From Candidatus Binatia bacterium (GTDB lineage: Bacteria > Desulfobacterota > Binatia > HRBIN30): DNA of 64,000 bases. Below the pieces are notes generated by a model. The model did not search any database. It worked only from the letters and a program-made list of their open reading frames with translations, and was not told the origin of the DNA. The stretch is taken from assembly GCA_038245295.1 (NCBI GenBank), contig JBBRSP010000017.1, forward strand, positions 50,144 through 114,143, read 5' to 3'. Made by a program: the position numbers and the translations under genes. How positions within the stretch are numbered: position 1 is the stretch's first letter; every line of letters begins with the position of its first letter. Below, piece after piece: positions 21,509 through 38,926 of this stretch.

Positions 21509-22573
21509 ATGGAAGTGCCCACCGAATCCACCACATCGTCGCCGCGCGGCGAGTTCGCCGACGCGCTCGCGCGGCTACGTATTCCGCCGTTTTATGCCGA
21601 GCCGCGCGCCGAATGGAGCGCTCTGCGCGGCAACGCCGGGTTGATCGACGGGCATTGTGCCGATCTGCTGCGTCTCAACGGTGGCGATCGCGCCACCTTC
21701 CTGCAGGGCATGATCACCAATGACATTCTGAAGACGCCGGTCGGCGCCGGTGTCTATGCGGCGCTGCTGACGATCCAGGGGCGCATCGTCTCTGATATGC
21801 GTGTGCTTCAACTGGCCGACGAGATCTGGCTCGACCTTCCCCCGGGCGCCGCACCGATCGTTCGCGCCGCCCTGGAAAAGTACATCATCGCCGACGATGT
21901 CGAGTTTGCCGAAGACGAAGCCTGGCGGCCGCTGCTGAGTATCGAGGGACCTAAGGCGGCGCGTGTTGTGGTCGCGGTTCTCGGGGAAAGCTTCGATGAT
22001 TTGGCGCCGCTCGCACACCGCGAAGGTTTGTTCGAAGGTCACGTCGTGCGCGTCGTCGCCGCCGCGCGCAGCGGTGCCGCCGGGTTCGTTGTCTTTGGCG
22101 CGCCGGAGATGCGCGGCGACCTGTGGGCACGCTGTTGCGCCGCCGGAGCGGATCCGGTCGGTGCCGAAGCGCTCAACGTCTTGCGTATCGAAGCCGGCAT
22201 TCCGTGGCTCGGCGTCGACATCGACGACTCGGTTCTCAGCGGCGAAGCGGAGATTGAAACGGCGATCAGCTTCCGCAAGGGCTGCTACCTCGGCCAGGAA
22301 GTCGTCGAACGCGTTGCGGCGCGAGGGCAGGTACAACGCAAGCGTGTTGGGCTGCGCTTTGGCGGCTCTGACGTTCCGGCGCGTGACTCGAAGCTATTTG
22401 CGGCCGACAAGGAAGTGGGTCGCGTGACCAGTGCCGTCTTCTCCTTCGCAGCCGAAGCGGTGATCGGCATGGGCTACGTGCGGCGCGAGGCCTGGGAGCC
22501 GGGGACGGCACTGCGCTGTGAGTCGGTCGCCCGGGCAATTGACGCAACGGTGGCACCTCTAAGACTAACCTGA
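21509..22573 (+). CDS. ygfZ: YgfZ/GcvT-like folate-binding Fe-S maturation protein
   Basis: KGCYLGQE signature, FLQGMITND, LRIEAGIP. Confidence 0.85.
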   Translation: MEVPTESTTSSPRGEFADALARLRIPPFYAEPRAEWSALRGNAGLIDGHCADLLRLNGGDRATFLQGMITNDILKTPVGAGVYAALLTIQGRIVSDMRVLQLADEIWLDLPPGAAPIVRAALEKYIIADDVEFAEDEAWRPLLSIEGPKAARVVVAVLGESFDDLAPLAHREGLFEGHVVRVVAAARSGAAGFVVFGAPEMRGDLWARCCAAGADPVGAEALNVLRIEAGIPWLGVDIDDSVLSGEAEIETAISFRKGCYLGQEVVERVAARGQVQRKRVGLRFGGSDVPARDSKLFAADKEVGRVTSAVFSFAAEAVIGMGYVRREAWEPGTALRCESVARAIDATVAPLRLT

Positions 22574-22615: not shown

Positions 22616-22703
22616 ATCACTGCGGCGATATTCCGGGGGCGCCGGAGGGGTTTGTATCGCGGCCTTGAAAAGTCTAGTTGCCAGCGACACGAGGAGGAGG
22701 AAC

Positions 22704-22847
22704 ATGCCGAATCAGTTGGGTAAGCGTTACATCTGTGATGCCTGCGGCACGGAAGCGCTGTGCAACAAGCCGGGCGCCGGCACCATTGAGTGTTGCGGCG
22801 CCGAAATGAAGCTGAAGGAAGCCAAGCCGGTTCCGTCGAGCGACTGA
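22704..22847 (+). CDS. Desulforedoxin-like miniprotein 1 (47 aa)
   Basis: MPNQLGKRYICDACGTEALCNKPGAGTIECCGAEMKLKEAKPVPSSD; Cx2Cx15CC; strong GAGGAGG RBS. Confidence 0.82.
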   Translation: MPNQLGKRYICDACGTEALCNKPGAGTIECCGAEMKLKEAKPVPSSD

Positions 22848-22851
22848 GCCC

Positions 22852-23571
22852 GTGTCGGCGGTTCTGTACGACAAGCGCGGTGCCGTCGGCATCGTCACCC
22901 TGAATCGCCCGGACAGCCTGAATGCCTACGACGTCGCGATGCGCGACGCCCTGCACGAGGCGTTGTGCGCCGTGCGCGACGACGACGAAGTCCGTTGCGC
23001 CATTCTTCAGGGCAACGGCGCGGCATTTTGCACGGGCGGTGACGTGCGCGAGTTCGGCACCGCACCCTCGCCGACGGTTGCTCGCCAGGCGCGCTGGCGG
23101 CGTGATAACTGGGGCCTCATGCGGCGCTTGTCGAAGCCGTTGATCGCCGCTGTTCACGGCTACGCCGCCGGCGGTGGCTTTGAGATGGCGCTGTTGTGCG
23201 ACCTTTGTATCGCATCACCCGACGCGACCTTCTGGTACCCGGAGACGGCACTCGGGATGATCCCCGGTGTTGCCGGAACACAGACGACGACGCGCCAGCT
23301 CGGCCAGGCGAGAGCACTGGAATTGATCCTGACCGGGCGCCGTCTGAACGCCACCGAGGCGCTGTCCTGGGGTGTGATCACCCGTGTCGTACCGCGCCGC
23401 CGTCTGCGTCACGCGGCGCTGCAGCTGGCAGGGCGCCTCTCGATCTTGCCAAGACAACTGGCCGCGGCGACCAAGCGTGCGGTGGACGAAGGTATGGACG
23501 TCGATCTTTCGACGGGGCTGCGGCTCGAACGTCGACTGGGTGCGTTGGTGGAACAGAGGAGTAGAGCGTGA
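22852..23571 (+). CDS. Enoyl-CoA hydratase/isomerase (crotonase), short C-terminus
   Basis: LNRPDSLNA, FCTGGD, GGGFE and PE catalytic glutamates. Confidence 0.92.
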   Translation: MSAVLYDKRGAVGIVTLNRPDSLNAYDVAMRDALHEALCAVRDDDEVRCAILQGNGAAFCTGGDVREFGTAPSPTVARQARWRRDNWGLMRRLSKPLIAAVHGYAAGGGFEMALLCDLCIASPDATFWYPETALGMIPGVAGTQTTTRQLGQARALELILTGRRLNATEALSWGVITRVVPRRRLRHAALQLAGRLSILPRQLAAATKRAVDEGMDVDLSTGLRLERRLGALVEQRSRA

Positions 23572-25130
23572 ACACTTCCAATTTTCTCAGCATCCCCGCT
23601 TCCATGTTCGATGAGCAGGAGATGATTGTCTTCGATGAGGCGCGCTTGACCTACGGACAACTTTGGTCCGAGGTGCAACAGCTCGCCAACGCCCTGCGCA
23701 GCCTCGGTGTCGGCACAGGGGATACTGTCGCGGTGCTGCAAACGAACTCGCATCGCTTCGTGCAGGCCTACTATGCCGCTGCCTTGATGGGGGCTGTGTT
23801 CTTGCCCGTGAACTATCGCGCCAAGCTTCCCGAGCTCGAGTACATGCTCAATGCCGCCAACACCAAGGTCCTGCTGCTCGGCGATCGCTACCTCGGCGCG
23901 ATTCAAGAGCTACGCCCGAAGCTGACGACGATTCAGCACTACATCACGCTGGAGAGCCCGCATGCCGATGCCAGACACGTCGACGAGATTCTTGCTGGGC
24001 AAGCGAGCGAATTCGAGCCCGTCGAAGTCGAAGACGAAGACACGACAATCCTCATGTACACCAGCGGCACCACGGCTCTGCCGAAACAGGTGCTGCTGAC
24101 GCACAACGACTTCACCGCTTACGTTACCGCCAACGTCGAGATGGCCGACGGTACGCCGCGCGGCACCTCACTCATCTGTGTGCCGCTATACCACATCGCC
24201 GGCGCCACCAACGTGATGTCCAACATGTGGTCCGGTCGCAAGATGGTGCTGCTGCGCCAGTTCGATACGCTCGAGTGGCTGCAGGCGGTCGAGCGCGAAC
24301 GGGTCACCCACGCCTTCCTGGTGCCGACAATGGTCAAGCAACTCCTTGATCATCCCGACTTCGCCAAGTTCGATCTGAGCAGCCTGCAGAATCTCTCCTA
24401 CGGCGGTGCCGCCATGCCGTTCCCGGTGATCCGGCGCGCCATCGAGATGTTCCCGAAGACCGTCGGCTTCGTGAACGCCTTTGGGCAAACCGAAACGACC
24501 TCGACGCTGACCGTCCTCGGCCCTGACGATCATCGGCTCGATGGCACACCGGCGGAAGTCGAAGTGCGACTCAAGCGCCTGAAGTCGATCGGCCTGCCGC
24601 TGCCCGATGTTGAGCTCAAGGTTGTCGACGATGACGGCAACGACGTTGCGCCGGGCGCGGTGGGCGAGCTGTGGGTGCGCACACCGCGCGTCATGAAGGG
24701 CTACGGCTCGGCCGGTGGCACAACTTCACCGCTGGTGCAGGACGGTTGGCTGCCGACACGCGACATGGGCTGGATTGACGAAGACGGCTACGCCTTCCTG
24801 GCGGGGCGCAAAGACGACATGATCATCCGCGGCGGCGAGAACATCGCTCCGGCGGAGGTCGAAGCGGTGCTCTATTCGCATCCCGGGGTCGACGAGGCGG
24901 CGGTCATCGGCATCCCGGATGTCGAGTGGGGCCAACGGGTCGCCGCCGTCGTCGCACCGCGACCGGGTGTGACTCTCACCGAGGCGGAGATCATCAGCTT
25001 CTGCCAGCAGCGCCTGGCGAGCTTCAAGAAGCCGGAGGTCGTGCGCTTCATGGAGTCGTTGCCGAAGAACCAAATGGGCAAGGTCCTGAAAAAGGATTTG
25101 CGCGCCGAATTTGGGGGCGCGGCGGCGTGA
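23568..25130 (+). CDS. Acyl-CoA synthetase / AMP-dependent ligase
   Basis: YTSGTTALPK, FGQTET, GRKDDMIIRGGENI, PKNQMGKVLK. Confidence 0.93.
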   Translation: MNTSNFLSIPASMFDEQEMIVFDEARLTYGQLWSEVQQLANALRSLGVGTGDTVAVLQTNSHRFVQAYYAAALMGAVFLPVNYRAKLPELEYMLNAANTKVLLLGDRYLGAIQELRPKLTTIQHYITLESPHADARHVDEILAGQASEFEPVEVEDEDTTILMYTSGTTALPKQVLLTHNDFTAYVTANVEMADGTPRGTSLICVPLYHIAGATNVMSNMWSGRKMVLLRQFDTLEWLQAVERERVTHAFLVPTMVKQLLDHPDFAKFDLSSLQNLSYGGAAMPFPVIRRAIEMFPKTVGFVNAFGQTETTSTLTVLGPDDHRLDGTPAEVEVRLKRLKSIGLPLPDVELKVVDDDGNDVAPGAVGELWVRTPRVMKGYGSAGGTTSPLVQDGWLPTRDMGWIDEDGYAFLAGRKDDMIIRGGENIAPAEVEAVLYSHPGVDEAAVIGIPDVEWGQRVAAVVAPRPGVTLTEAEIISFCQQRLASFKKPEVVRFMESLPKNQMGKVLKKDLRAEFGGAAA

Positions 25131-25870
25131 AACGCCGGTCCGCGCCGCTGCATGTCGCCATCGATGCCACTGGCGTGGCCAGGGTCACCTTTGCCGTGCC
25201 TCGCCTCGACGAGTCGCTCGCGGCGGCCTTGTGTGATGCGGCATTGGAGCTCGAAGCGGATGCGGCCGTGCGCGTCGTCACTCTGTCGGGAAGCGGAGCG
25301 GATTTCTGCGTCGGTGCACCGTCCCACGCACCGTGGTTGCAACGGCTCGACTGTGTGCGCGCCTTCGGGGCCGTGTCGAAGCCGATCATCGCCGCGTTGC
25401 ACGGCAAGGTCATCGGCGAAGGGTGCGAGCTGGCGTTGGCGTGTGATCTGCGAATCGCCGCGAGCAATGTGACCTTGGCGATGCCACAGGTGGCCCGTGG
25501 CTATCTGCCGCGCTGCGGCGCAACGCAGCGGCTGCCAAGGTTGATCGGACGCATGCGTAGTCTCGAGTTGCTGCTGAGCGGACGCCCTGTCGCGGCGAAG
25601 GAAGCGTTGACGATCGGCCTGGTGACTCAGGTGCAACCGTTGTCGCGGCTCGACTCGGCATTGCGGCGGATGGCGGCGGAGCTGTCGCGTAAAGGTCCGC
25701 TTGCCTTGCGCTATGCGAAGGAAGCGATAGGGAAGGGCGCCGACATGACATTCGAGCAGGGGATGCGGTTGGAAGAAGATCTGTACGTGTTACTGCAGAC
25801 GACCGAGGATCGACGCGAAGGCATCGACGCGTTTTTGCAGAAGCGGTCGCCGCGGTTTGTTGGGCGCTAG
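25127..25870 (+). CDS. Crotonase-family protein with a degenerate active site
   Basis: FCVGA, SKPIIAALHG, GEGCELALACDLR, MPQ where PE is expected; GTG overlaps the ligase stop codon. Confidence 0.85.
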   Translation: MKRRSAPLHVAIDATGVARVTFAVPRLDESLAAALCDAALELEADAAVRVVTLSGSGADFCVGAPSHAPWLQRLDCVRAFGAVSKPIIAALHGKVIGEGCELALACDLRIAASNVTLAMPQVARGYLPRCGATQRLPRLIGRMRSLELLLSGRPVAAKEALTIGLVTQVQPLSRLDSALRRMAAELSRKGPLALRYAKEAIGKGADMTFEQGMRLEEDLYVLLQTTEDRREGIDAFLQKRSPRFVGR

Positions 25871-25896
25871 GGAAGAACGAAACCAGGGAGGGTGAG

Positions 25897-26016
25897 ATGG
25901 CAAACCAGTTGGGCAAAATGTACCTGTGCAGCAAGTGCAGCTCGCAAGTGATCGTCACCAAGGGCGGCAATGGCACGCTCAAGTGTTGTAGTCAGGACAT
26001 GGAGCAGAAGAAGTAG
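25897..26016 (+). CDS. Desulforedoxin-like miniprotein 2 (39 aa; absent from the ORF track)
   Basis: MANQLGKMYLCSKCSSQVIVTKGGNGTLKCCSQDMEQKK; Cx2Cx15CC; GGGAGG RBS. Confidence 0.85.
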   Translation: MANQLGKMYLCSKCSSQVIVTKGGNGTLKCCSQDMEQKK

Positions 26017-26020
26017 GCCG

Positions 26021-26827
26021 ATGCTCTCACACGCACAGGTCGCCGAGCATGCCGACCGTGTCGGGCGCGATGGCTACACGATCGTCGAGAACGCCATCGA
26101 GCCCGAGATGATCGACGCCATCGCCGAGGATCTGCTGCGCCTCGAGCACAAACACAACATCCGGCCGGCGAACAACCCGTTCGAAGGGAACAAGACGGTT
26201 CGGATCTACAACTTGCTGGTCTTCGGCGAGCTGTACGAACGCATCCCGGTGCACGAGAATGTGTTGCCGGTAGTCGAGAGTGTGCTCGACCCTGGCTGTC
26301 TCATTTCATCGCTTTCGTCGATCTCTATCTGTGCCGAGGAGCGGGCTCAGCCGATCCATGCCGACGATCAGTTGATCCCGCTGCCGCGTCCGCATCCGCC
26401 GTTGGTTTGCAACAGCATGTGGGCACTCACCGACTTCACAGAAGAGAATGGAGCCACCCGTCTGGTTCCCGGCTCGCACAAGCTGGATCACGCGCCCGAC
26501 TATTCGAAGCGCATCGAGACGATTCCTGCCGCGATGGCGAAGGGCAGCGTGCTGGTGTGGAACGGCAGCCTGTGGCACGGCGGCGGCGCCAACAAAACCG
26601 CCGAGCGGCGTGTCGGGATCGCCATGAACTACTGCGCCGGCTACATGCGCCAGCAGGAAAATCAGCAGCTTGGCATTCCGCGCGACATCGCCAAAGGATT
26701 CTCGCCGCGCCTGCGCGAGCTCGTCGGCTATGGCGTCTACAACGGCCTCATTGGACACATCAACAAGAAGAGCCCGGTCGGCTTGCTCGACGGGGACGGC
26801 GAGCAGCGGCTTACTTGGGATGTCTGA
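26021..26827 (+). CDS. Phytanoyl-CoA dioxygenase (PhyH) family Fe(II)/2-oxoglutarate oxygenase
   Basis: QPIHAD (HxD), DFTEENGATRLVPGSH, LWHGGGAN, RQQEN. Confidence 0.92.
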   Translation: MLSHAQVAEHADRVGRDGYTIVENAIEPEMIDAIAEDLLRLEHKHNIRPANNPFEGNKTVRIYNLLVFGELYERIPVHENVLPVVESVLDPGCLISSLSSISICAEERAQPIHADDQLIPLPRPHPPLVCNSMWALTDFTEENGATRLVPGSHKLDHAPDYSKRIETIPAAMAKGSVLVWNGSLWHGGGANKTAERRVGIAMNYCAGYMRQQENQQLGIPRDIAKGFSPRLRELVGYGVYNGLIGHINKKSPVGLLDGDGEQRLTWDV

Positions 26828-28599: not shown

Positions 28600-29247
28600 A
28601 TGCCCACTGTACTCGGAGCCGGTGTTTCACCGTTTGTGCGTAAGGTTCGCGTCGCGTTGGCGGAGAAGGGGATTGCTTACGAGCATGATCCGGTGATTCC
28701 GTTCGGCGCGCCGCCGGAGTTCAGGAAGATCAGCCCGCTTGGGAAGATCCCCGCCTATCGCGATGGCGACAAAGAGCTGTGCGACTCGTCGGTCATCTGC
28801 GCCTATCTCGAGAAGACACACCCATCGCCATCGCTCTATCCGTCCGATGCCTACGACTACGCTCGCGCCTTGTGGTTCGAGGAGTATGCCGACGGCGGCA
28901 TGGTGAGCGTCGTCGGTCCGAAGATCTTCATGCAGAAGGTGCTCAATCCGTTGTTCTTCCAGAAGGCGACGGATGAGGCGGTCGTCAAGAAAGCCGTCGA
29001 GGAAGAGTTGCCGGTGTTCTTCGACTATCTCGAAAGCCAGTTGGGCACCGCGCCGTTTCTGGTCGGCAATCAGTTCAGCATCGGCGACATTGGCGTCGGC
29101 TCGCAGTTCGTGAATCTCAAGCACGCTGGCGTGTCGGTGGACGCCAAACGCTGGCCCAAGCTGGCGAAGTACGTTGCCGGGCTGTTCGCGCGACCGTCGT
29201 TCAAGGCGTTGATCGACGAAGAGTCGGCGCAATTCGGCGGAGCCTAG
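28600..29247 (+). CDS. Glutathione S-transferase family protein
   Basis: SPFVRKVR, SPLGKIP, DSSVICAYLE, FSIGDI. Confidence 0.93.
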   Translation: MPTVLGAGVSPFVRKVRVALAEKGIAYEHDPVIPFGAPPEFRKISPLGKIPAYRDGDKELCDSSVICAYLEKTHPSPSLYPSDAYDYARALWFEEYADGGMVSVVGPKIFMQKVLNPLFFQKATDEAVVKKAVEEELPVFFDYLESQLGTAPFLVGNQFSIGDIGVGSQFVNLKHAGVSVDAKRWPKLAKYVAGLFARPSFKALIDEESAQFGGA

Positions 29248-29250
29248 ACT

Positions 29251-29344
29251 CCGCACGCTGAAGCTTGCGCCTACCTCGCTCGGGCAGCACGTCGTTCCTG
29301 ACACCCACCGTGTGCGAGTTGGTAGGCGCAGGCTTCAGCCTGCG
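29251..29344. repeat. GTAG-type REP doublet
   Basis: ccgcacgctgaagcttgcgcctacc ... ggtaggcgcaggcttcagcctgcg. Confidence 0.82.
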
Positions 29345-29415
29345 ATGGAATGCCGGGCGGCGGCCATTGAATCCAGTGGGTAGCGCGCTTCGCGAGAAGG
29401 AAATAAAGAGGGGGC

Positions 29416-30651
29416 ATGAAGTTCCCGCAATCCGGCCGCGCCGCCGTAGATATTCTCGAAGATCTCGATGTCCTCAAACGCCGCGACATCGACTGGAAGT
29501 CCGGTCGTGCTTTCAGCCTGGCGTATTTTGCCGGCCAGGATGTTCTCGACCTGGCGACCGACGCCTACGTCAAGTTCCTCTCCACCAATGCTCTGAATCC
29601 CGCCGCCTTCCCCAGCCTGGCGCGCATGCAGCGTGATGTCGTGGGTTGGATGATCGATCTCCTCAACGGCGGACCCGAGGCTGCCGGCTTCATGACTACC
29701 GGTGGCACCGAGAGTATCCTCATGGCCGTCAAAGCGGCGCGCACGCGTGGTCGCAAACGCGGCATCGCGCATCCCGAGATGGTCCTTCCGGCGTCGGCGC
29801 ATGCCGCCTTCGAGAAGGGTGCCGAGTACTTCGGCGTCAAGTCGGTGCGGATCCCGGTGCGCGCCGACTACCGCGCCGACGTCGACGCGATGTCTGCGGC
29901 GGTGAACGCCAATACCGTCCTGCTGGTCGCTTCCGCTCCGCAATACCCGCAGGGGGTGATCGATCCGATCGCCGCAGTGGCGGCAATCGCCTCGCACCAC
30001 GACATCAATTGCCATGTCGATGCCTGTATGGGCGGCATCACGTTGCCGATGCTTGAGCGTCTTGGGTACCCGATCGCCGCTTTCGATTTCCGTGTTCCGG
30101 GGGTGACGTCGATCTCGGTTGATCTCCACAAGTATGGCTACACCGCCAAGGGCGCTTCGGTGATCTTGCATCGCAACAAGGAGCTGCGGAAACATCAGAC
30201 GTTCGTTACCGAGAACTGGCTCGGCGGCGCCTACGGCAGCTCCGGTGTGATGGGTACCAAGGGTGGCGGCTCGATCGCCGCGGCGTGGGCCGTCATGCAG
30301 TATCTGGGAGAAGAGGGCTATCTGCGTCTCACCAAACAGGCCCGCGATGCGACCGAAGCGCTGCGCGACGGCCTAGGCGGCGTGCCCGGCGTGCGGCTTC
30401 GGGCCGAGCCCGACGCCACCTTGCTGAGCTTTTCCTTCGACGACGTGGATGCCTTCGCTGTTGGCTCGGCGCTGCGGGCGCGCGATTGGCTGGCCGATGA
30501 GCAGAAACCGCCACCGAGTCTGCATTGCACCGTCAACGCCGTGCACGGACCCGTCATCAACGAGTTTCTCGAGGCTCTCACCGAGTCGATCGAAGAAGTG
30601 CGCGCCGCTTCTTCGCCGGGCGTGCAGAAGGCGTACGCCGGCGTCGAGTAG
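29416..30651 (+). CDS. PLP-dependent group II decarboxylase-fold enzyme, sphingosine-1-phosphate-lyase-like
   Basis: TTGGTESILMA, AHAAFEK, SAPQYPQGVIDPI, HVDACMGG, SISVDLHKYG. Confidence 0.85.
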   Translation: MKFPQSGRAAVDILEDLDVLKRRDIDWKSGRAFSLAYFAGQDVLDLATDAYVKFLSTNALNPAAFPSLARMQRDVVGWMIDLLNGGPEAAGFMTTGGTESILMAVKAARTRGRKRGIAHPEMVLPASAHAAFEKGAEYFGVKSVRIPVRADYRADVDAMSAAVNANTVLLVASAPQYPQGVIDPIAAVAAIASHHDINCHVDACMGGITLPMLERLGYPIAAFDFRVPGVTSISVDLHKYGYTAKGASVILHRNKELRKHQTFVTENWLGGAYGSSGVMGTKGGGSIAAAWAVMQYLGEEGYLRLTKQARDATEALRDGLGGVPGVRLRAEPDATLLSFSFDDVDAFAVGSALRARDWLADEQKPPPSLHCTVNAVHGPVINEFLEALTESIEEVRAASSPGVQKAYAGVE

Positions 30652-30706
30652 GAACCCTCACCCCGGCTTTGCAAATACGATCAATGGTCCGGCAGCGATC
30701 AGCTGT

Positions 30707-30786
30707 CCGCAGGCTGAAGCCTGCGCCTACCGCGCTGGAATTCGCGGTGGGAGTGGAGATTGGTAGGCGCAGGCTTCAGCCTGCGG
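30707..30786. repeat. GTAG-type REP doublet
   Basis: ccgcaggctgaagcctgcgcctacc ... ggtaggcgcaggcttcagcctgcgg. Confidence 0.85.
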
Positions 30787-30880
30787 ACGAGGCGAATTCC
30801 TGCGCGAAGCCGAGTGAGGGCCCGCACTTGCTTTCCTCCCACCGAAGCAGGCAATCTCCGCGGCGCATGCGAGATCAACG

Positions 30881-32038
30881 ATGAGTACTTCCATCCGTGA
30901 CCGCACCGCCATCGTCGGCATCGGTCAAACCTCTTTCGGCAAGGGTCTGGAAGACAGCGAGCTGTCGCTCGCCTGCCAGGCCATCGTCATGGCCCTTGCG
31001 GATGCCGGTTTGGAGCCGAGTCAGGTCGACGGCCTGGCGATGTTCTCCATGGAGAGCGGCCGCGAGGTCGAGGTGGCGCGCAACGTTGGCCTCGGCGACA
31101 TTACCTACTTCGGCGAGATTGGTTATGGCGGCGGCGCCGGTTGTGCCGCCGTCGGCCACGCGTCGATGGCCGTCGCCACCGGGCAATGCAAAGTCGCCGT
31201 TGCCTGGCGGGCCCGTAAACGTTCGGCCAAGGCCAGCCGACCGTGGGCCAATGTCGCGGCGCGTGTCGGCGGGGCGCATCAATGGACCCGCCCGTTCGGC
31301 TTGCTGCGGCCGGTCGACGAGATCGCCATGCTGACACGGCGCTACATGCACCAGTTCGGCGCGACACGCGAACACCTCGCCAATGTCGCGCTCGCTTTCC
31401 GCAAACACGCCAACCGCAACCCCAACGCGACGATGTACGAGAAGAAGATGACGCGCGACGACTATCGGAAGGCGCGCTGGGTTTCGGAGCCGCTGTGCCT
31501 GTTCGACAACTGCCTCGAAACCGATGGTGCGCTCGCGGTGGTCATCACCTCGGCGGAGCGGGCCAAGGATCTGCCGCAGAAGCCGGTTTATCTCCACTCG
31601 TTCGCCCAGGGTATCCCGCGGCAGCATCAGGTTATGACCAATTACTTCAATGATGATCCGCTGCTTGGTCCATCGTACGCCTGCGCCAAACTGCTGTGGC
31701 AGAACAGCGACTTCAAGCCGAAGGACGTCCGTGTGGCACAACTCTACGACGCCTTCAGTCCGCTCATCCCACTGTCACTCGAAGGCTACGGCTTCTGTGG
31801 GCGCGGCGAAGGCGCGGCATTCACCGACAACGGTGCCCTCGAGTGGCCGAATGGTCGGCTGCCAACCAACACCGCCGGTGGCGGAATGTCGGAAGCCTAT
31901 GTGCACGGATTCAACCTTGTCATCGAGGGCGTGCGGCAGATGCGTGGCACCTCGACCTCGCAGGTGGACGCCGCCGAGTCCTGCCTGGTGACCAGCGGCG
32001 AAGGTGTGCCCACCAGCGCCTTGTTGCTGCGGAGGTAA
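30881..32038 (+). CDS. SCP-x/lipid-transfer-type thiolase-superfamily protein (Ltp2-like aldolase)
   Basis: TAIVGIGQT, DNCLETDG, QLYDAFS, NTAGGGMSEAYVHG. Confidence 0.88.
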   Translation: MSTSIRDRTAIVGIGQTSFGKGLEDSELSLACQAIVMALADAGLEPSQVDGLAMFSMESGREVEVARNVGLGDITYFGEIGYGGGAGCAAVGHASMAVATGQCKVAVAWRARKRSAKASRPWANVAARVGGAHQWTRPFGLLRPVDEIAMLTRRYMHQFGATREHLANVALAFRKHANRNPNATMYEKKMTRDDYRKARWVSEPLCLFDNCLETDGALAVVITSAERAKDLPQKPVYLHSFAQGIPRQHQVMTNYFNDDPLLGPSYACAKLLWQNSDFKPKDVRVAQLYDAFSPLIPLSLEGYGFCGRGEGAAFTDNGALEWPNGRLPTNTAGGGMSEAYVHGFNLVIEGVRQMRGTSTSQVDAAESCLVTSGEGVPTSALLLRR

Positions 32039-32041
32039 GTT

Positions 32042-32479
32042 GTGGAAAGCGCCTTTCTTCTCCCTGATCTTGAAGATCCTGAAGGTGCCCCGTTCTGGGA
32101 GGGCACAGCGCGCGGCGAATTGCGCGTTCAGGCTTGCGCCGCCTGCGGCCAATGCCGCATTCCGCCGCGGCCGATGTGCCCGAGTTGTCACTCGACCAAG
32201 CAGCGCTGGGAGATTCTCAGCGGCCGCGGTCGTATCTGGTCGTTTGTCGTGCCGTATCCGCCGCTGTTGCCGGCCTATCAGGCTTTGGCTCCCTACAACG
32301 TGATCGTCGTCGAGCTCGAGGAAGATCCGCGGCTACGTCTGGTGGGTAACCTCGTGGCGCGCGCGGACGGGCCGATCAACGAGGTGGATCCGACGACGAT
32401 CCGCATCGGCCAGGCAGTCCGCGTCGTGTTTCAACCCGAAGGCGATGTGGTGTTTCCTCGGTGGATAGCGATTGTGTGA
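32042..32479 (+). CDS. DUF35 Zn-ribbon/OB-fold protein (thiolase partner)
   Basis: PFWEG, CAAC...PPRPMCPSC, SGRGRIWSF; GTG start. Confidence 0.92.
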   Translation: MESAFLLPDLEDPEGAPFWEGTARGELRVQACAACGQCRIPPRPMCPSCHSTKQRWEILSGRGRIWSFVVPYPPLLPAYQALAPYNVIVVELEEDPRLRLVGNLVARADGPINEVDPTTIRIGQAVRVVFQPEGDVVFPRWIAIV

Positions 32480-32510
32480 CGTATCGCTTGCGGTCGTCGT
32501 TCCGGCCAAG

Positions 32511-32668
32511 GAGACTGTCGATAAACTGAAATGAAGCAACGTCATCCCGGCGAAAGCCGGGATCTCCTCGAGTGGAAGACCAAGAATGCTGGGGAGATAC
32601 CGGCTTTCGCCGGTATGACGGGGGTTTGCGCTGTTTCAAACGATGAATCAGAGAAAATCGACAGGCTC
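32511..32668. mobile_element. MITE family A, copy 2, inserted in the loop of a GTCnTTCCGGC-type palindrome (element spans about 32495-32742)
   Basis: TIR gagactgtcgat/atcgacaggctc; flanks gttccggc-caag | gaag-gccggaac. Confidence 0.8.
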
Positions 32669-32783
32669 GAAGGCCGGAACCCAGTGATGGGGTCGAAGCG
32701 CCAGGGCTAAACGCCTGGATCCCGGCTTTCGCCGGGATGACGGGCTTGACGGGTCGGGAGCACGATGGTCGCGCGGAGCACCT

Positions 32784-33962
32784 ATGACAAACGAAGTCGT
32801 CTACAACCCATTCGCCTACGAGATCCACGAGGATCCTTATCCAACGTACAAACGCCTGCGCGACGAGGCGCCAGCCTACTACAATGCACAGCACGACTTC
32901 TGGGCTCTGTCGCGTTACCAGGATCTCTACGAGGCGATGCACGATTGGCAAACCTACTCGAACCTCGGGGGCGTCGCTCTGGAGAAGGGTAGCGGCATGG
33001 CGCCGCCGATGATCATCGCCATGGACCCGCCGCGCCAGACCAAGCTGCGCAAGATCATCAGCAGCGCCTTTACCCCACGCCGCATCGCCATGCTGGAGCC
33101 GAAGGTGCGCGAGCTGACGCGGAAGTATTTGGCGCCGCTCGTTCATCGCGGTGAATTCGACTTCATCCAGGACTTCGCCGCAAGGCTACCCATGGACGTG
33201 ATCAGCACGATGATGGGTGTGCCGGAAGCCGACCAGGACATGTTGCGCGGCTGGGCCGATGCTTTATTGCACCGCGAGGAAGGCAATCCGGAAGTCCCTA
33301 AAGAAGGCATCGAAGGCGCCACCAATCTGGTGCGTTACTTCGCTACCGACATTCGCAAACGCCGAGGCAACCTGGGCGACGATCTGATCAGTGCCCTGAT
33401 CACCATCGAATCCGACGGCGAGAAGCTCAGTGATGACGAGATCTACGGGTTCTGCTTTCTGTTGGTGATCGCCGGGAATGAAACGACCACCAAGATGCTC
33501 GGCAACGTCCTGCTGCAACTGCACCGCCATCGCGATCAACGCGATCAGGTCGTCGCCGATCCGCGGCGTGCTGCCGATGCGGTGGAAGAGATCGTGCGCT
33601 TCGACAACTCGACGCAGATGTTGGCGCGGGTGTTGACCCGTGACGTCGAGATGCACGGTCGGAGGATGCAGGCCGGCAAGAAGCTTCTCTTGTTGTTGGG
33701 TGCGGGCAACCGCGACGAGCGTGTCTTCGATAATCCCGACAAGTTCGACATAAACCGCAAACCGCAACAACATCTCGGCTTCGGCTTCGGGACTCACGTC
33801 TGCCTCGGTGCGGCATTGGCACGTCTCGAAGGCCGCGTGGCGCTCGAGGAGATCCACGCGGTCATTCACGATTACGAGGTGGATGAGGCGGGTATGGAAC
33901 GTGTGCACTCAACCAACGTACGCGGCTACTCGCGCATGCCGATTCGCTTCCGCGCCGGCTAA
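32784..33962 (+). CDS. Cytochrome P450
   Basis: AGNETT I-helix, EIVR (ExxR), FGFGTHVCLG heme motif. Confidence 0.95.
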   Translation: MTNEVVYNPFAYEIHEDPYPTYKRLRDEAPAYYNAQHDFWALSRYQDLYEAMHDWQTYSNLGGVALEKGSGMAPPMIIAMDPPRQTKLRKIISSAFTPRRIAMLEPKVRELTRKYLAPLVHRGEFDFIQDFAARLPMDVISTMMGVPEADQDMLRGWADALLHREEGNPEVPKEGIEGATNLVRYFATDIRKRRGNLGDDLISALITIESDGEKLSDDEIYGFCFLLVIAGNETTTKMLGNVLLQLHRHRDQRDQVVADPRRAADAVEEIVRFDNSTQMLARVLTRDVEMHGRRMQAGKKLLLLLGAGNRDERVFDNPDKFDINRKPQQHLGFGFGTHVCLGAALARLEGRVALEEIHAVIHDYEVDEAGMERVHSTNVRGYSRMPIRFRAG

Positions 33963-35432: not shown

Positions 35433-36032
35433 TCAACGTGCGGCGTGGATGGAGTGCACGCCCTCGGCAATTTCTCCCGCCAGATCGTCGAGCGCCGCGC
35501 TCATCGCGGCGACCGCTGCCTCGGTGTCGCCACCGGCGCTCTGTTTCACGATTGTGCTCTCGTGCCAAAGGACAGTGTCCTTGCCGCGCCGTACTACCCA
35601 GTGCGCCGCCAGCTCGGCGACGCCCGAGGCATCCACTTCGAAGTGGGTGATGTCGACCTGGACGCCGAAGTCGACACCGCCGGGCGGCCACGGATAGTTG
35701 GCGACGCGCCCGATACGCTCACGATTCTCGATATCCTGTGCCAGTACACGCGGCACGGCGCTGCGCAGGGGTTCGGCCCAGCGTTCGTACTCGGCGACGC
35801 GCACACGGTTGCTGCCGTCGCGGCGAACCATCTGCGGCCGGTCCAGATAGGACGGCAGCGAGATGGGTCCGAGGCCAACCGTGAGCTTGGCGGTGGCGGC
35901 GTCGGTGTTGCGCTCGACCGGGCGCAAGACGAAGTATTGTGTCGGGTCGGGACGCGGCTCGAGAACCGAACAGCCGGCGACGAGGCACGAGAGAAGCAGG
36001 ACGACAACAAGACGAAGCGGCGAAAGGGTCAT
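35433..36032 (-). CDS. pqiC: PqiC-like ABC auxiliary lipoprotein
   Basis: Lipobox VAGC, LPSYLDRPQMV, WAEPL. Confidence 0.85.
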   Translation of the reverse strand: MTLSPLRLVVVLLLSCLVAGCSVLEPRPDPTQYFVLRPVERNTDAATAKLTVGLGPISLPSYLDRPQMVRRDGSNRVRVAEYERWAEPLRSAVPRVLAQDIENRERIGRVANYPWPPGGVDFGVQVDITHFEVDASGVAELAAHWVVRRGKDTVLWHESTIVKQSAGGDTEAAVAAMSAALDDLAGEIAEGVHSIHAAR

Positions 36033-37000
36033 GGGTTCTTCTCCTGCGGAATGGGCTTGCCGCGCAGCAACCCACCCGGGTTGTGCTCGATGGAATCGGC
36101 AAGAATGCGCACCGCCTGGGCCGCCTCGCTGACGTCACGCAGAGCTGTTTGTATGTCGTGCCACATGGGGGCGTCGGCTCCCAAACTCTGCTGCACATCT
36201 TCCAGGGCGGTGTTGGCCGTACGCAAGGTCACGTCGAGCTGGCTCGCGCTCTCCTGCAAGCTGGTGCGTAGGGGAACGACCTGACCATCGAGGTTGTCGA
36301 TCAGCTTTCCGAGACGATCGGAAGTCGCTTGCAGGCTGTGCATGGTGCCGCCGAGCGACTCGATGGTGTTCTTCAGTTCCATCGAGGTGGTGAGCGTCTC
36401 GATGCCATTCGCGGCGCCGACGATCGCCCGGATCAACCCTTCGAAGTCGACCTTATCGAGGCGGCCAATGAATTCCGAGGCGCGCATCTGCACTTGTTCA
36501 AATTCGGTCGGCACGGTGGGGATCTGTGGGTAGTTGACGCCGGTGTTGAACGTGTAGCGCTCTTGCGTGCCGGGGAAGAGATCGAGGCGGACATACAACA
36601 CGCCGGTCACGATGCTTTCGATCGATAGTTGGCCGCGCAGGCCGGCGCTGATGACCTGCTTGAAGACCTCCGGATCCTGCAAGCGGATCTCGGCGCCATG
36701 CTCCTTCAGCTTGTCGTTGTCGATGCTGATGATCACTGGGATGCGCACGCTTTCGGTGTGCCCCTTGGTCGACACGTTCAGGTTGAGCTGAACGGCCTGC
36801 ACCGAGCCGACCTCGACGCCGCGGAACTTGACCGGTGCGCCGGTTCGCAGGCCGCTGACGTCGCTGTCAAAGAACAGTACGAACATCTGGCGATTGGCGC
36901 GCAGCAGGCCCGAGCCGAACAACGCAAGGCTGACGACGGCGAGAGCCAAGGCGCCGACAACGAAGGCGCCGATGGCGGCTGGACTGGCACGTTTGCTCAT
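36029..37000 (-). CDS. MCE/MlaD-domain protein with a helical C-terminal region
   Basis: N-terminal TM, VSGLRTGAPVKFRGVEVGSV. Confidence 0.92.
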   Translation of the reverse strand: MSKRASPAAIGAFVVGALALAVVSLALFGSGLLRANRQMFVLFFDSDVSGLRTGAPVKFRGVEVGSVQAVQLNLNVSTKGHTESVRIPVIISIDNDKLKEHGAEIRLQDPEVFKQVISAGLRGQLSIESIVTGVLYVRLDLFPGTQERYTFNTGVNYPQIPTVPTEFEQVQMRASEFIGRLDKVDFEGLIRAIVGAANGIETLTTSMELKNTIESLGGTMHSLQATSDRLGKLIDNLDGQVVPLRTSLQESASQLDVTLRTANTALEDVQQSLGADAPMWHDIQTALRDVSEAAQAVRILADSIEHNPGGLLRGKPIPQEKNP

Positions 37001-37007
37001 AGGCTCC

Positions 37008-37784
37008 TCATCGTTTCTTCTCCGCGCCGCGCGTCAGAAACTCCAACACCTTGGGATTGTCGGAGTGCGCCAGAAGCTCCTTCGGATCACCACCGGCGAT
37101 CATCGTGCGAGTTTCGGCATCGAGAAAAACACTGTTGTTGGCGATGTTGAAGATGCTCGCGAGCTCATGCGTCACCACCACGACGGTGGCGCCGAGGCTG
37201 TCGCGTAGCTCGAGGATCAGGCGGTCGAGGAGATACGAGCTGATCGGGTCGAGGCCGGCCGATGGCTCGTCGAAAAACAACACTTCGGGATCGAGCGCCA
37301 TGGCTCGTGCCAGAGCGGCACGCTTCTGCATGCCGCCGCTGATCTCCGATGGGTAGTAGTCCTCGAAGCCCTTGAGACCGACGAGCGCCAGCTTGAGCGA
37401 GGCAACCTGACGGATGTCGTGCGGCTTCAAGTCGGTGAACTCACCGAGCGGCAAGGCGACATTCTCGGCCAGGGTCATCGAGCTCCACAAGGCGCCGCTT
37501 TGGTACATGACGCCGCAGCGCCGCAGGATCTGCTCGCGCAGCTTGGGATCGGCACGTGTGAAGTTGTCGTCGCCGTACCAGATTTCGCCGCGTGCCGGAT
37601 CGTTGAGGCCGACGAGATGGCGCAGCAGAGTACTCTTGCCGCAGCCGCTGCCACCCATGACGACGAACACGTCGGCGCGGCGAATGGTGAAATCGAGGTC
37701 GCGCTGCAACACGAAGTTGCCGTAGGCCATCGTCAGCTGATCGACACGGATGTGAGCATCGGAATCTGTCGTGCTTGTCGCCAT
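37008..37784 (-). CDS. mlaF: MlaF-like ABC ATPase
   Basis: GGSGCGKST, ISGGMQKR, FFDEPSAGLDP. Confidence 0.9.
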   Translation of the reverse strand: MATSTTDSDAHIRVDQLTMAYGNFVLQRDLDFTIRRADVFVVMGGSGCGKSTLLRHLVGLNDPARGEIWYGDDNFTRADPKLREQILRRCGVMYQSGALWSSMTLAENVALPLGEFTDLKPHDIRQVASLKLALVGLKGFEDYYPSEISGGMQKRAALARAMALDPEVLFFDEPSAGLDPISSYLLDRLILELRDSLGATVVVVTHELASIFNIANNSVFLDAETRTMIAGGDPKELLAHSDNPKVLEFLTRGAEKKR

Positions 37785-37786
37785 CG

Positions 37787-38926
37787 TCAGATCCCCAAGA
37801 GGTAGAACAACACGGCGAAGATGCCGCAGGCGGTGATGATCCACACGATGCTGGTGACCACCGCCGATGTTGTCGCCTCACCGACCGCCGCCGAGCTCTT
37901 GCCGGCCTGGATGCCGCGCAGGCAGCCGGCCAGAGCGATCAACACGCCATACACCGACGCCTTGAAAACGCCGCCGACGAGATCACCCAGACTGATCGCA
38001 CTGACGGTCTGCTGGTAGTAACGGATCGGCGACAGGCCGAGCAGCCCGACCGACACCGTTGCGCCACCGAGGATGCCGAGCAGGTCGGAGTAGAGGCAGA
38101 GCAGCGGCATCATCAGGAACAGGGCGATCATCCGAGGCAATACGAGGAACTCGAGCGGTGAGATGCCCATCGTCGTCAGCGCGTCGAGCTCTTGTGTGGC
38201 TTTCATACTGCCGAGTTGCGCCGCGTAGGCCGCGCCTGTGCGACCGGCCATGACAATCGCCGTCATCATGGCGCCCATCTCGCGCACGGTGGCGATACCG
38301 ACGAGGTTGGCGACGTAGATGGTTGCGCCGAATTGCTGCAGCTGCACGGCGCCAACGAAGGCGAGGATGAGGCCCACCAGGAAACTGATCAACGTGACGA
38401 TGGGTAGGGCCTCGGCGCCCGCTTGTTGCACCAGCAGCAGCAGGTCGGACGTGCGGTAGCGGGCCCGGAACGCCAGGAGTTTCCCAAACGCCAGCGTCGC
38501 CTCGCCGATGAAGCCGAGTACGGCGCGCGCCGAATCGGCGCTGTCGATGACGCGGCGGCCAATCGCGGTGAACATGCCGACGCGGCCCGCGTCGTGTCGC
38601 GCATCGGCCTTTTCCGGGACGGCCTCGACCAGGGCCAGCAGCCGCTGCACGCCTTGCGGCAAACCGCCGCGATCGACGTCGAGGTGGTGTCGCCCCGCCG
38701 CGGCGAGGAGCTCCACGAGATAAGTGATGAAGCCGGTATCCCATTCGGTCAGTTTACTCGTGTCGAAGCTCACGTGCGCGATACCGTCCGTCGTAAAGGG
38801 CAACTCGTAGGTGTGAGCCGCCGGCATCGACGCACCGAGCGTCCAGGGGCCGACGAAGCGCAAGCGGACCTGGCTGTCGTGGCGCGCGGCGGAGAGCTCA
38901 GGATGCGGACGGCGAGAGACAGTCAC
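37787..38926 (-). CDS. mlaE: MlaE-family permease with an N-terminal STAS-like domain
   Basis: REMGAMMTAIVMAGRTG, ELDAL, VGEATTSAVV. Confidence 0.9.
   Translation of the reverse strand: MTVSRRPHPELSAARHDSQVRLRFVGPWTLGASMPAAHTYELPFTTDGIAHVSFDTSKLTEWDTGFITYLVELLAAAGRHHLDVDRGGLPQGVQRLLALVEAVPEKADARHDAGRVGMFTAIGRRVIDSADSARAVLGFIGEATLAFGKLLAFRARYRTSDLLLLVQQAGAEALPIVTLISFLVGLILAFVGAVQLQQFGATIYVANLVGIATVREMGAMMTAIVMAGRTGAAYAAQLGSMKATQELDALTTMGISPLEFLVLPRMIALFLMMPLLCLYSDLLGILGGATVSVGLLGLSPIRYYQQTVSAISLGDLVGGVFKASVYGVLIALAGCLRGIQAGKSSAAVGEATTSAVVTSIVWIITACGIFAVLFYLLGI

Follow-up and report, generated by a model that had tools for sequence, protein, structure and literature searches.

Desulforedoxin is a dimer, and the amino-group carrier protein LysW carries an EDWGE motif and is loaded by an ATP-grasp ligase. 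Centre I of superoxide reductase (SOR) is described as dispensable for activity in a preprint (bioRxiv 10.1101/2022.12.19.521142), and a globular body with an acidic C-terminal tail has a carrier precedent in the AmCP/LysW proteins, according to PMC9303977. Here, we have analyzed a stretch of 64,000 nucleotides from a Candidatus Binatia bacterium (contig JBBRSP010000017.1; the whole stretch is called the window below), in which two short open reading frames (ORFs), ORF1 and ORF2, bracket genes for two crotonases and an adenylate-forming enzyme of the acyl-coenzyme A (CoA) ligase type. It had been predicted from the sequence that both ORFs encode desulforedoxin-like miniproteins with an undescribed role, and our results support this claim. 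The two ORFs belong to a real, undescribed, multi-phylum system, in which a mini-protein is strictly co-inherited with an acid-activating ligase and a thioester-processing crotonase.

Both ORFs (47 and 39 residues) were found where they had been placed, each with the pattern C-x2-C-x15-CC-x3-M, each preceded by a purine-rich run that resembles a ribosome-binding site (RBS), and each with a stop 4 nucleotides upstream of the next start (22852 and 26021). Their proposed desulforedoxin identity was borne out by a profile search, in which ORF1 and ORF2 scored 23.3 and 33.7 bits with PF06397 (cut-off 23), and their sequences match the solved chains 1cfw (desulforedoxin) and 1vzg. Both were under the cut-off of NCBIfam TIGR00319 (14.2 and 27 bits versus 36), and the scores with TIGR00320, which represents the SOR type, were about 21-25 bits versus 147. 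At E<0.01 they were the sole PF06397 matches in the genome, with which a regular-expression scan concurred. The PF01880 catalytic domain could not be found in the whole genome (96.6% complete), in agreement with the earlier statement that no SOR is present. The mini-ORFs are not chance products, because 36 of 41 related genomes hold the family and synonymous change exceeds non-synonymous change in all comparisons (82/82 for ORF1, median pS 0.59 and pN 0.14; 28/28 for ORF2, median pS 0.60 and pN 0.15). Both are real genes under purifying selection. A sigma-70-type promoter was not found for the operon, and terminators were not in excess.

A protein search over 50%-identity representatives yielded 486 matches, many of which were tandems of about 100 residues with an ORF2-like, tail-less domain followed by an ORF1-like, tail-bearing domain. 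At four loci of the same order (L017-L020, family f4), one fused protein of 97 residues occupies the place of ORF1 and ORF2; these loci keep the order ygfZ, mini-protein, crotonase, ligase and crotonase, and their ligases are 67-68% identical to that of the window. ORF1 and ORF2 are two halves of one protein. The AlphaFold model of the fused f4 protein had a pLDDT of 94 (68 for the last block, that is, the tail), and its best structural match was desulforedoxin 1cfw (root-mean-square deviation 1.2 Å over 36/36 residues, with a low Z of 3.6). A Foldseek search with this model gave no match in the PDB at E<=0.001, and all matches to the mini-protein in the ESM Atlas were unnamed or PF06397 clusters. 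The sampled family spans Actinomycetota, Chloroflexota, Alpha-, Beta- and Gammaproteobacteria, Myxococcota, Binatia and others, in which the mini-genes are annotated as hypothetical or left uncalled. Its carriers include harmless bacteria in culture, such as Sphingobium scionense (L139), which has a fused homologue.

The occurrence of metal ligands was analyzed in 120 loci taken from 2 of the 64 parts of a GTDB DNA pattern scan, from which about 3,900 stored stretches with a tail domain were estimated. Four Cys were present in 29 of these tail domains, three Cys and a His in five, one ligand in six and none in 80, so that 86 retain no more than a single Cys ligand of the four. The metal site is thus dispensable across the family, since these 80 domains and the syntenic fused f4 protein are devoid of any metal ligand. 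Conserved across the family are G-K-R-Y, two glycines and a free C-terminal tail ending in P-[SA]-S-D. In the protein searches, the C-terminus was SD or AD in 124 of 162 relatives, and among the others are tail-less halves and proteins whose ends seem to have been mis-called. The terminal Asp was invariant in alignments A2 and A4, both of which were selected for tail presence; the GTDB pattern required the tail and is uninformative about its conservation. Among the longer matches, nearly all of them singletons, 24 of 32 still terminate at the tail. The Asp-ended tail of ORF1, which the original prediction had overlooked, is the best-conserved feature of the family.

Two further ideas about the mini-protein were rejected: ligase-mini-protein fusions, as both ligase-containing long matches that we read were frameshifted singletons, and Cys20 as an essential nucleophile, as this residue is kept in 105 of 120 tail domains and replaced in the f4 proteins. 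In one subfamily (P0072, P0077, P0097, P0098, P0100, P0108, P0112, P0114, P0150, P0155, P0159 and P0162), the tail domain is joined to a different N-terminal domain of about 60 residues that is not ORF2-like.

The operon context, from which the undescribed role had been proposed, proved to be conserved, and homologues keep the linkage to the ligase and crotonases across genomes and metagenome loci. Neighbour counts were taken from tblastn, because a simple gene caller overlooked Ala/Arg-rich genes. The order ORF1-crotonase 1-ligase-crotonase 2-ORF2 was observed in 12 of the 20 related loci collected. Among the metagenome loci with at least 4.2 kb downstream (24/80), 22 had the full five-gene order and two end at crotonase 2. 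The mini-gene abuts an adenylate-forming enzyme in 5/6 annotated plasmid loci, and 54 of 80 flanked GTDB loci have a ligase within 6 kb. When 100 ligases were placed in a tree, a single clade of 71 members (support 1.0) took in all operon ligases and 44 of the 45 adjacent ones; of the 26 ligases of the window genome, only one belongs to it. A profile of this clade separated members (at least 574 bits) from others (at most 278 bits). Clade ligases retain all catalytic motifs and have invariant residues of their own (Y185, R224, W237, Y278, H322 and R337).

Co-inheritance extends beyond adjacent genes. Among 29 genomes that have no clade ligase beside the mini-gene, 26 have one elsewhere, and in one more a ligase fragment lies at the end of a contig. 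In the order that holds Nocardia (L148), the ligase was detected in 28 of 151 genomes, the mini-protein in 28 and both in 27, the two discordant genomes being the weakest matches. In 81 genomes of the class Dehalococcoidia, 50 of the 52 ligase-containing genomes had a mini-protein match; another 16 had a match without the ligase, 10 of them with a strong pair and six with weak, unpaired, putative matches. For most Dehalococcoidia, no linkage was seen between the pair and the ligase. Five close relatives that lack the mini-protein lack both ligase and crotonase orthologues, and four relatives with an unlinked mini-protein have both. A predicted complex of the L018 ligase and its fused mini-protein scored 0.10 and 0.21 against a mark of 0.32; it was modelled without folded controls and was not used.

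With regard to the ligase in Dehalococcoidia, one genome (G224, loci L255-L258) has 14 mini-protein matches and six clade ligases. At several loci of this class, a Sir2-family deacylase gene directly follows crotonase 1, often ahead of the ligase gene (L274:6065-6853, L241:3106-3882, L269:5909-6685 and L270:5799-6590), and its product possibly takes part in an acylation control of the ligase.

The crotonase pair itself appears to be a split enzyme. In crotonase 1, the oxyanion motif and both glutamates (G62/D64, E111 and E131), the catalytic motifs of two-glutamate hydratases of the crotonase superfamily, are invariant in 81/81 orthologues, and the final helix is missing. Crotonase 2 has lost the oxyanion motif and has Gln in place of the second Glu in 41 of 53 sequences, with its C-terminal helices conserved. 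The crotonase 1 clade (support 0.994) also takes in 21 proteins from other phyla, mostly of about 330-350 residues, whose N-terminal part aligns to crotonase 2 (HHalign 93%, E 3e-7; 59% versus 33 other crotonases of the genome). Crotonases 1 and 2 are thus, by homology, complementary halves that are fused elsewhere, since a crotonase 2 remnant precedes crotonase 1 in these longer proteins. An example of the fused form is found at L142:7734-8744 (about 340 residues), and the pair would be an undescribed heteromeric crotonase. The fused crotonase was present in 27/27 carriers and 0/16 non-carriers of the Nocardia order, always in one copy and often unlinked. Of 13 genomes that have the mini-protein but no full clade ligase, 9 encode crotonase 1; it was detected in 6/6 ligase genomes and in 0/7 genomes with neither.

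Additional partners were identified in some lineages. An Amidohydro_3 protein is encoded near 21 of 80 loci and a CaiB-like transferase near 18 of 80, and the amidohydrolase occurs in 27/27 carriers of the Nocardia order versus 1/16 non-carriers. At E<=1e-25, the amidohydrolase query detected none in 11 genomes of the Binatia order and 11 of Dehalococcoidia, which does not imply absence given the distance of the query. In three ligase-less genomes (G045, G229 and G293), subunits of a family I CoA transferase precede the mini-genes, and two of these genomes have a CaiB pair ahead of the crotonases. It should be noted that a CaiB-like transferase, Amidohydro_3 and the fused crotonase recur together as a module, mostly in single copy, at L276-L295 and L191:7571-10116, in which the transferase has a divergent N-terminal half; several such modules adjoin genes that, by sequence reading, encode phosphoenolpyruvate carboxykinase, a second ligase, acyl-CoA dehydrogenase and a MaoC-like protein. 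At L113, L118, L129, L131, L148 and L186 (Streptomyces, Actinocorallia and Nocardia), the fused mini-gene follows an ATP-binding cassette (ABC) transporter, often before Amidohydro_2, and the ligase is more distant.

We tentatively propose, at a probability a little short of even, that the mini-protein serves as a carrier, or as a protein substrate, and that the ligase activates its free C-terminal Asp before the crotonase pair processes it. ORF1 and ORF2 would form a heterodimer with a single protruding tail, and metal, where bound, would be structural. The ligase would adenylate a carboxylate of the terminal Asp and hand it to CoA or an amine, a step that a CoA transferase would perform in a few genomes; crotonase 1, to which crotonase 2 would supply the missing helix, would then act on the tethered thioester, and the amidohydrolase, where present, would release the product. 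We favour a carrier or substrate because what is invariant in the mini-protein is a carboxylate at the end of a flexible arm, because the mini-protein persists with crotonases where CoA transferases seem to be ligase stand-ins, and because the set of many lineages is made complete by an amide hydrolase, much like amino-group carrier pathways (PMC9303977). The persistence of the crotonase without a full ligase, together with the CoA-transferase neighbours, favours a shared substrate over an activator of one enzyme. The partner set consists of enzymes that make, process and cleave acyl bonds, which was counted in the same direction, and we infer that the mini-protein is shared between ligase and crotonase. 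Somewhat more doubtful is the wider proposal of a new carrier class, in which the ligase or CoA transferase would activate the tail Asp, the heteromeric crotonase would work on the tethered group and the amidohydrolase would free it, as an unrecognized pathway of many phyla.

Several observations weigh against a carrier or substrate. The conserved proline-rich C-terminal tail would suit a docking peptide just as well. The cases of ligase replacement come from three draft genomes, and in G063, another apparent ligase-less exception, the end of a contig truncates the ligase. In the Nocardia order, the copy number of the mini-protein follows that of the ligase (for example, six versus five in G163) and the crotonase is single-copy, a pattern that an activator subunit would show. 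The mini-protein could not be found in two ligase-bearing genomes of Dehalococcoidia. The genomes counted are kin and hence not independent samples. Finally, no clear amidohydrolase orthologue was found in the window genome, and the release step is therefore not universal.

A distinctly possible alternative, which we nevertheless hold to be further from even than either proposal above, is an accessory subunit or scaffold, as MbtH-like proteins or DUF35 partners would be: the tail would dock on the ligase, and perhaps on the crotonases, to activate, stabilize or channel, and what the ligase activates would be a small acid in free form. The usual position of the mini-gene a few nucleotides upstream of the ligase gene, the tracking copy numbers, the ordinary beta-oxidation genes nearby and the correlation between the distance matrices of ligase and mini-protein (48 pairs; rho 0.65, or 0.42 minus the four f4 rows, shared ancestry included) all agree with such a role. 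A Fisher test that accompanied the matrix comparison is inflated by kinship. It accounts poorly for the 10 Dehalococcoidia genomes in which the pair and crotonases persist where the full clade ligase was not found, for the unlinked pairs in most members of this class and for the lack of a recurring ligase fusion among the matches, and it leaves the invariance of the terminal Asp unexplained. The original prediction of an Fe/Zn accessory heterodimer holds in part: the natural fusions of ORF2-like and ORF1-like domains support a heterodimer, but a need for Fe or Zn does not fit the 80 of 120 domains without ligands. We regard as improbable that the mini-protein is a precursor peptide used once, whose terminal Asp would be converted and then cleaved off to yield a small product or cofactor. 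Conservation at the extreme C-terminus and the recurring single-copy module, in which a CaiB-like transferase and an amidohydrolase accompany the fused crotonase, would fit this explanation, for which PMC9303977 offers a precedent in pearlin-type scaffolds; the body, however, is predicted to be a well-folded two-domain protein, the mini-protein is duplicated alongside the ligase in catabolic clusters, and the amidohydrolase orthologue was not found in the window genome.

Explanations based on metal or redox chemistry appear less probable still. A metal chaperone, or a redox or metal sensor, for the operon enzymes or the dioxygenase would agree with the four Cys kept in both window ORFs and in 29 of 120 tail domains, and with the YgfZ-like neighbour in this lineage, but we consider it very unlikely in view of the ligands gone from most tail domains and from the f4 protein and of the poor conservation of PhyH. 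The proposal that a true desulforedoxin shuttles electrons to the P450, the dioxygenase or SOR, which the original prediction had offered for the nearby oxygenases, has lost nearly all credibility. The motif and fold do agree with desulforedoxin, and no ferredoxin was seen near the P450 among the ORFs read in window 14-40 kb. Nevertheless, most tail domains have lost the ligands, including the fused version in the same operon of close relatives, which makes a shuttle unlikely; SOR was not found in the genome, only 2 of 12 related operons have the P450 linked to them, PhyH and sthA are not conserved neighbours either, and a PF13459 ferredoxin is encoded on another contig. 2-Oxoglutarate (2OG) dioxygenases require no external electron carrier.

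The features of the operon in the window are listed below.

Table 1. Coordinates of the mini-protein operon and its adjoining genes in the window
Feature	Position	Strand	Description
YgfZ-like gene	21509..22573	+	Upstream neighbour, conserved in this lineage only
Purine run, RBS-like, ahead of ORF1	22691..22700	+	Seen in sequence
ORF1, tail-bearing half, 47 residues	22704..22847	+	Desulforedoxin fold; Cys11/14/30/31; non-ligand Cys20; corresponds to C-terminal domain of fused relatives
C-terminal tail K-P-V-P-S-S-D-stop of ORF1	22824..22847	+	Best-conserved family feature
Crotonase 1	22852..23571	+	PF00378; G62/D64, E111, E131 intact; without usual C-terminal helix
Adenylate-forming (acyl-CoA ligase-type) enzyme	23568..25130	+	PF00501/PF13193; mini-protein-linked clade
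Crotonase 2	25127..25870	+	Degenerate active site; C-terminal helices conserved; likely partner subunit of crotonase 1
Purine run, RBS-like, ahead of ORF2	25885..25891	+	Seen in sequence
ORF2, tail-less half, 39 residues	25897..26016	+	Desulforedoxin fold; four Cys; corresponds to N-terminal domain of fused relatives
PhyH-family 2OG dioxygenase	26021..26827	+	PF05721; local addition, outside core

Profile searches confirmed the earlier identification of the two crotonases, the ligase, PhyH, the YgfZ-like protein and SthA. The operon had been described as ending in a 2OG dioxygenase; the enzyme was correctly named, but this ending is atypical, as PhyH and sthA lie downstream in 3 of 12 related operons and PhyH in 0/24 of the metagenome loci. 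A block of thiolase, OB-fold and P450 genes was observed in 2 of 12 related operons. The dioxygenase, the P450 and sthA are local additions, because the oxygenases are rare in related operons and PhyH was not present in any of the 24 metagenome loci. The YgfZ-like gene adjoins 15 of 16 related operons and is found in only 5 of 80 GTDB loci, all of which have an unfused four-Cys gene. PhyH, SthA, the P450 and YgfZ were rejected as functional partners, none of them being a conserved neighbour. Elsewhere in the window, positions 28600-33962 hold genes named from ORF reading as a glutathione S-transferase, a pyridoxal phosphate-dependent decarboxylase-like protein, an SCP2-type thiolase with an OB-fold partner and the P450, and a Mla/Mce-like ABC transport set (permease, ATPase, MlaD-like protein and lipoprotein, read by eye) occupies 35433-38926 on the minus strand.

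Whatever the mechanism, the ligase clade, the split crotonase and the amidohydrolase gain a defined missing partner, and these enzymes may therefore show no activity when expressed alone. If the tail is the ligase substrate, an enzyme of the acyl-CoA ligase type would act on a protein C-terminus, a carrier class would stand alongside ACP, ThiS/MoaD and LysW, and thousands of soil, sediment and marine bacteria would possess an unrecognized pathway. The family also illustrates the reuse of a redox fold after loss of its metal.

A comparison with described systems places the mini-protein apart from each of them. In our search of the literature, mostly outside subscription journals, no description of the family was found. 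With desulforedoxin (1cfw/1dxg) and desulfoferrodoxin centre I (PF06397, TIGR00319), the mini-protein has in common the C-x2-C-x15-CC motif, the fold and the two-domain arrangement. It differs from them in being a hetero-pair or tandem fusion with an Asp-ended tail on one half, in the loss of ligands in most relatives, the absence of SOR and the linkage to acyl-CoA enzymes. Thus, it contains a desulforedoxin domain without being a superoxide reductase. The nearest solved ligases (feruloyl-CoA synthetase 8weu/8wev, FadD5 and MenE) share all core adenylation motifs with the clade ligases; no solved structure of a clade ligase was found, and the best solved ligase reached 324 bits on the clade profile versus at least 574 for members, the two values coming from different databases. 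MbtH-like proteins are likewise small proteins that are encoded next to an adenylating enzyme and inherited together with it, whereas the partner here is a stand-alone enzyme of the acyl-CoA ligase type rather than a nonribosomal peptide synthetase domain, and crotonases are co-inherited. No match to the MbtH family was found by sequence or fold, PF06397 being the only Pfam match at E<=1. The amino-group carrier proteins LysW and Vzb22, as described in PMC9303977, resemble the present system in their small globular body, their acidic-ended C-terminal extension and the ligase and hydrolase nearby. Homology to LysW-type proteins was not seen in Pfam, NCBIfam or PDB searches; the mini-protein family ends in Asp instead of a C-terminal Glu, and its recurring partners are a PF00501 adenylate-forming ligase and crotonases instead of an ATP-grasp ligase. 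Therefore, the mini-protein is neither a LysW-type carrier nor an MbtH-like protein, but it may work like either.

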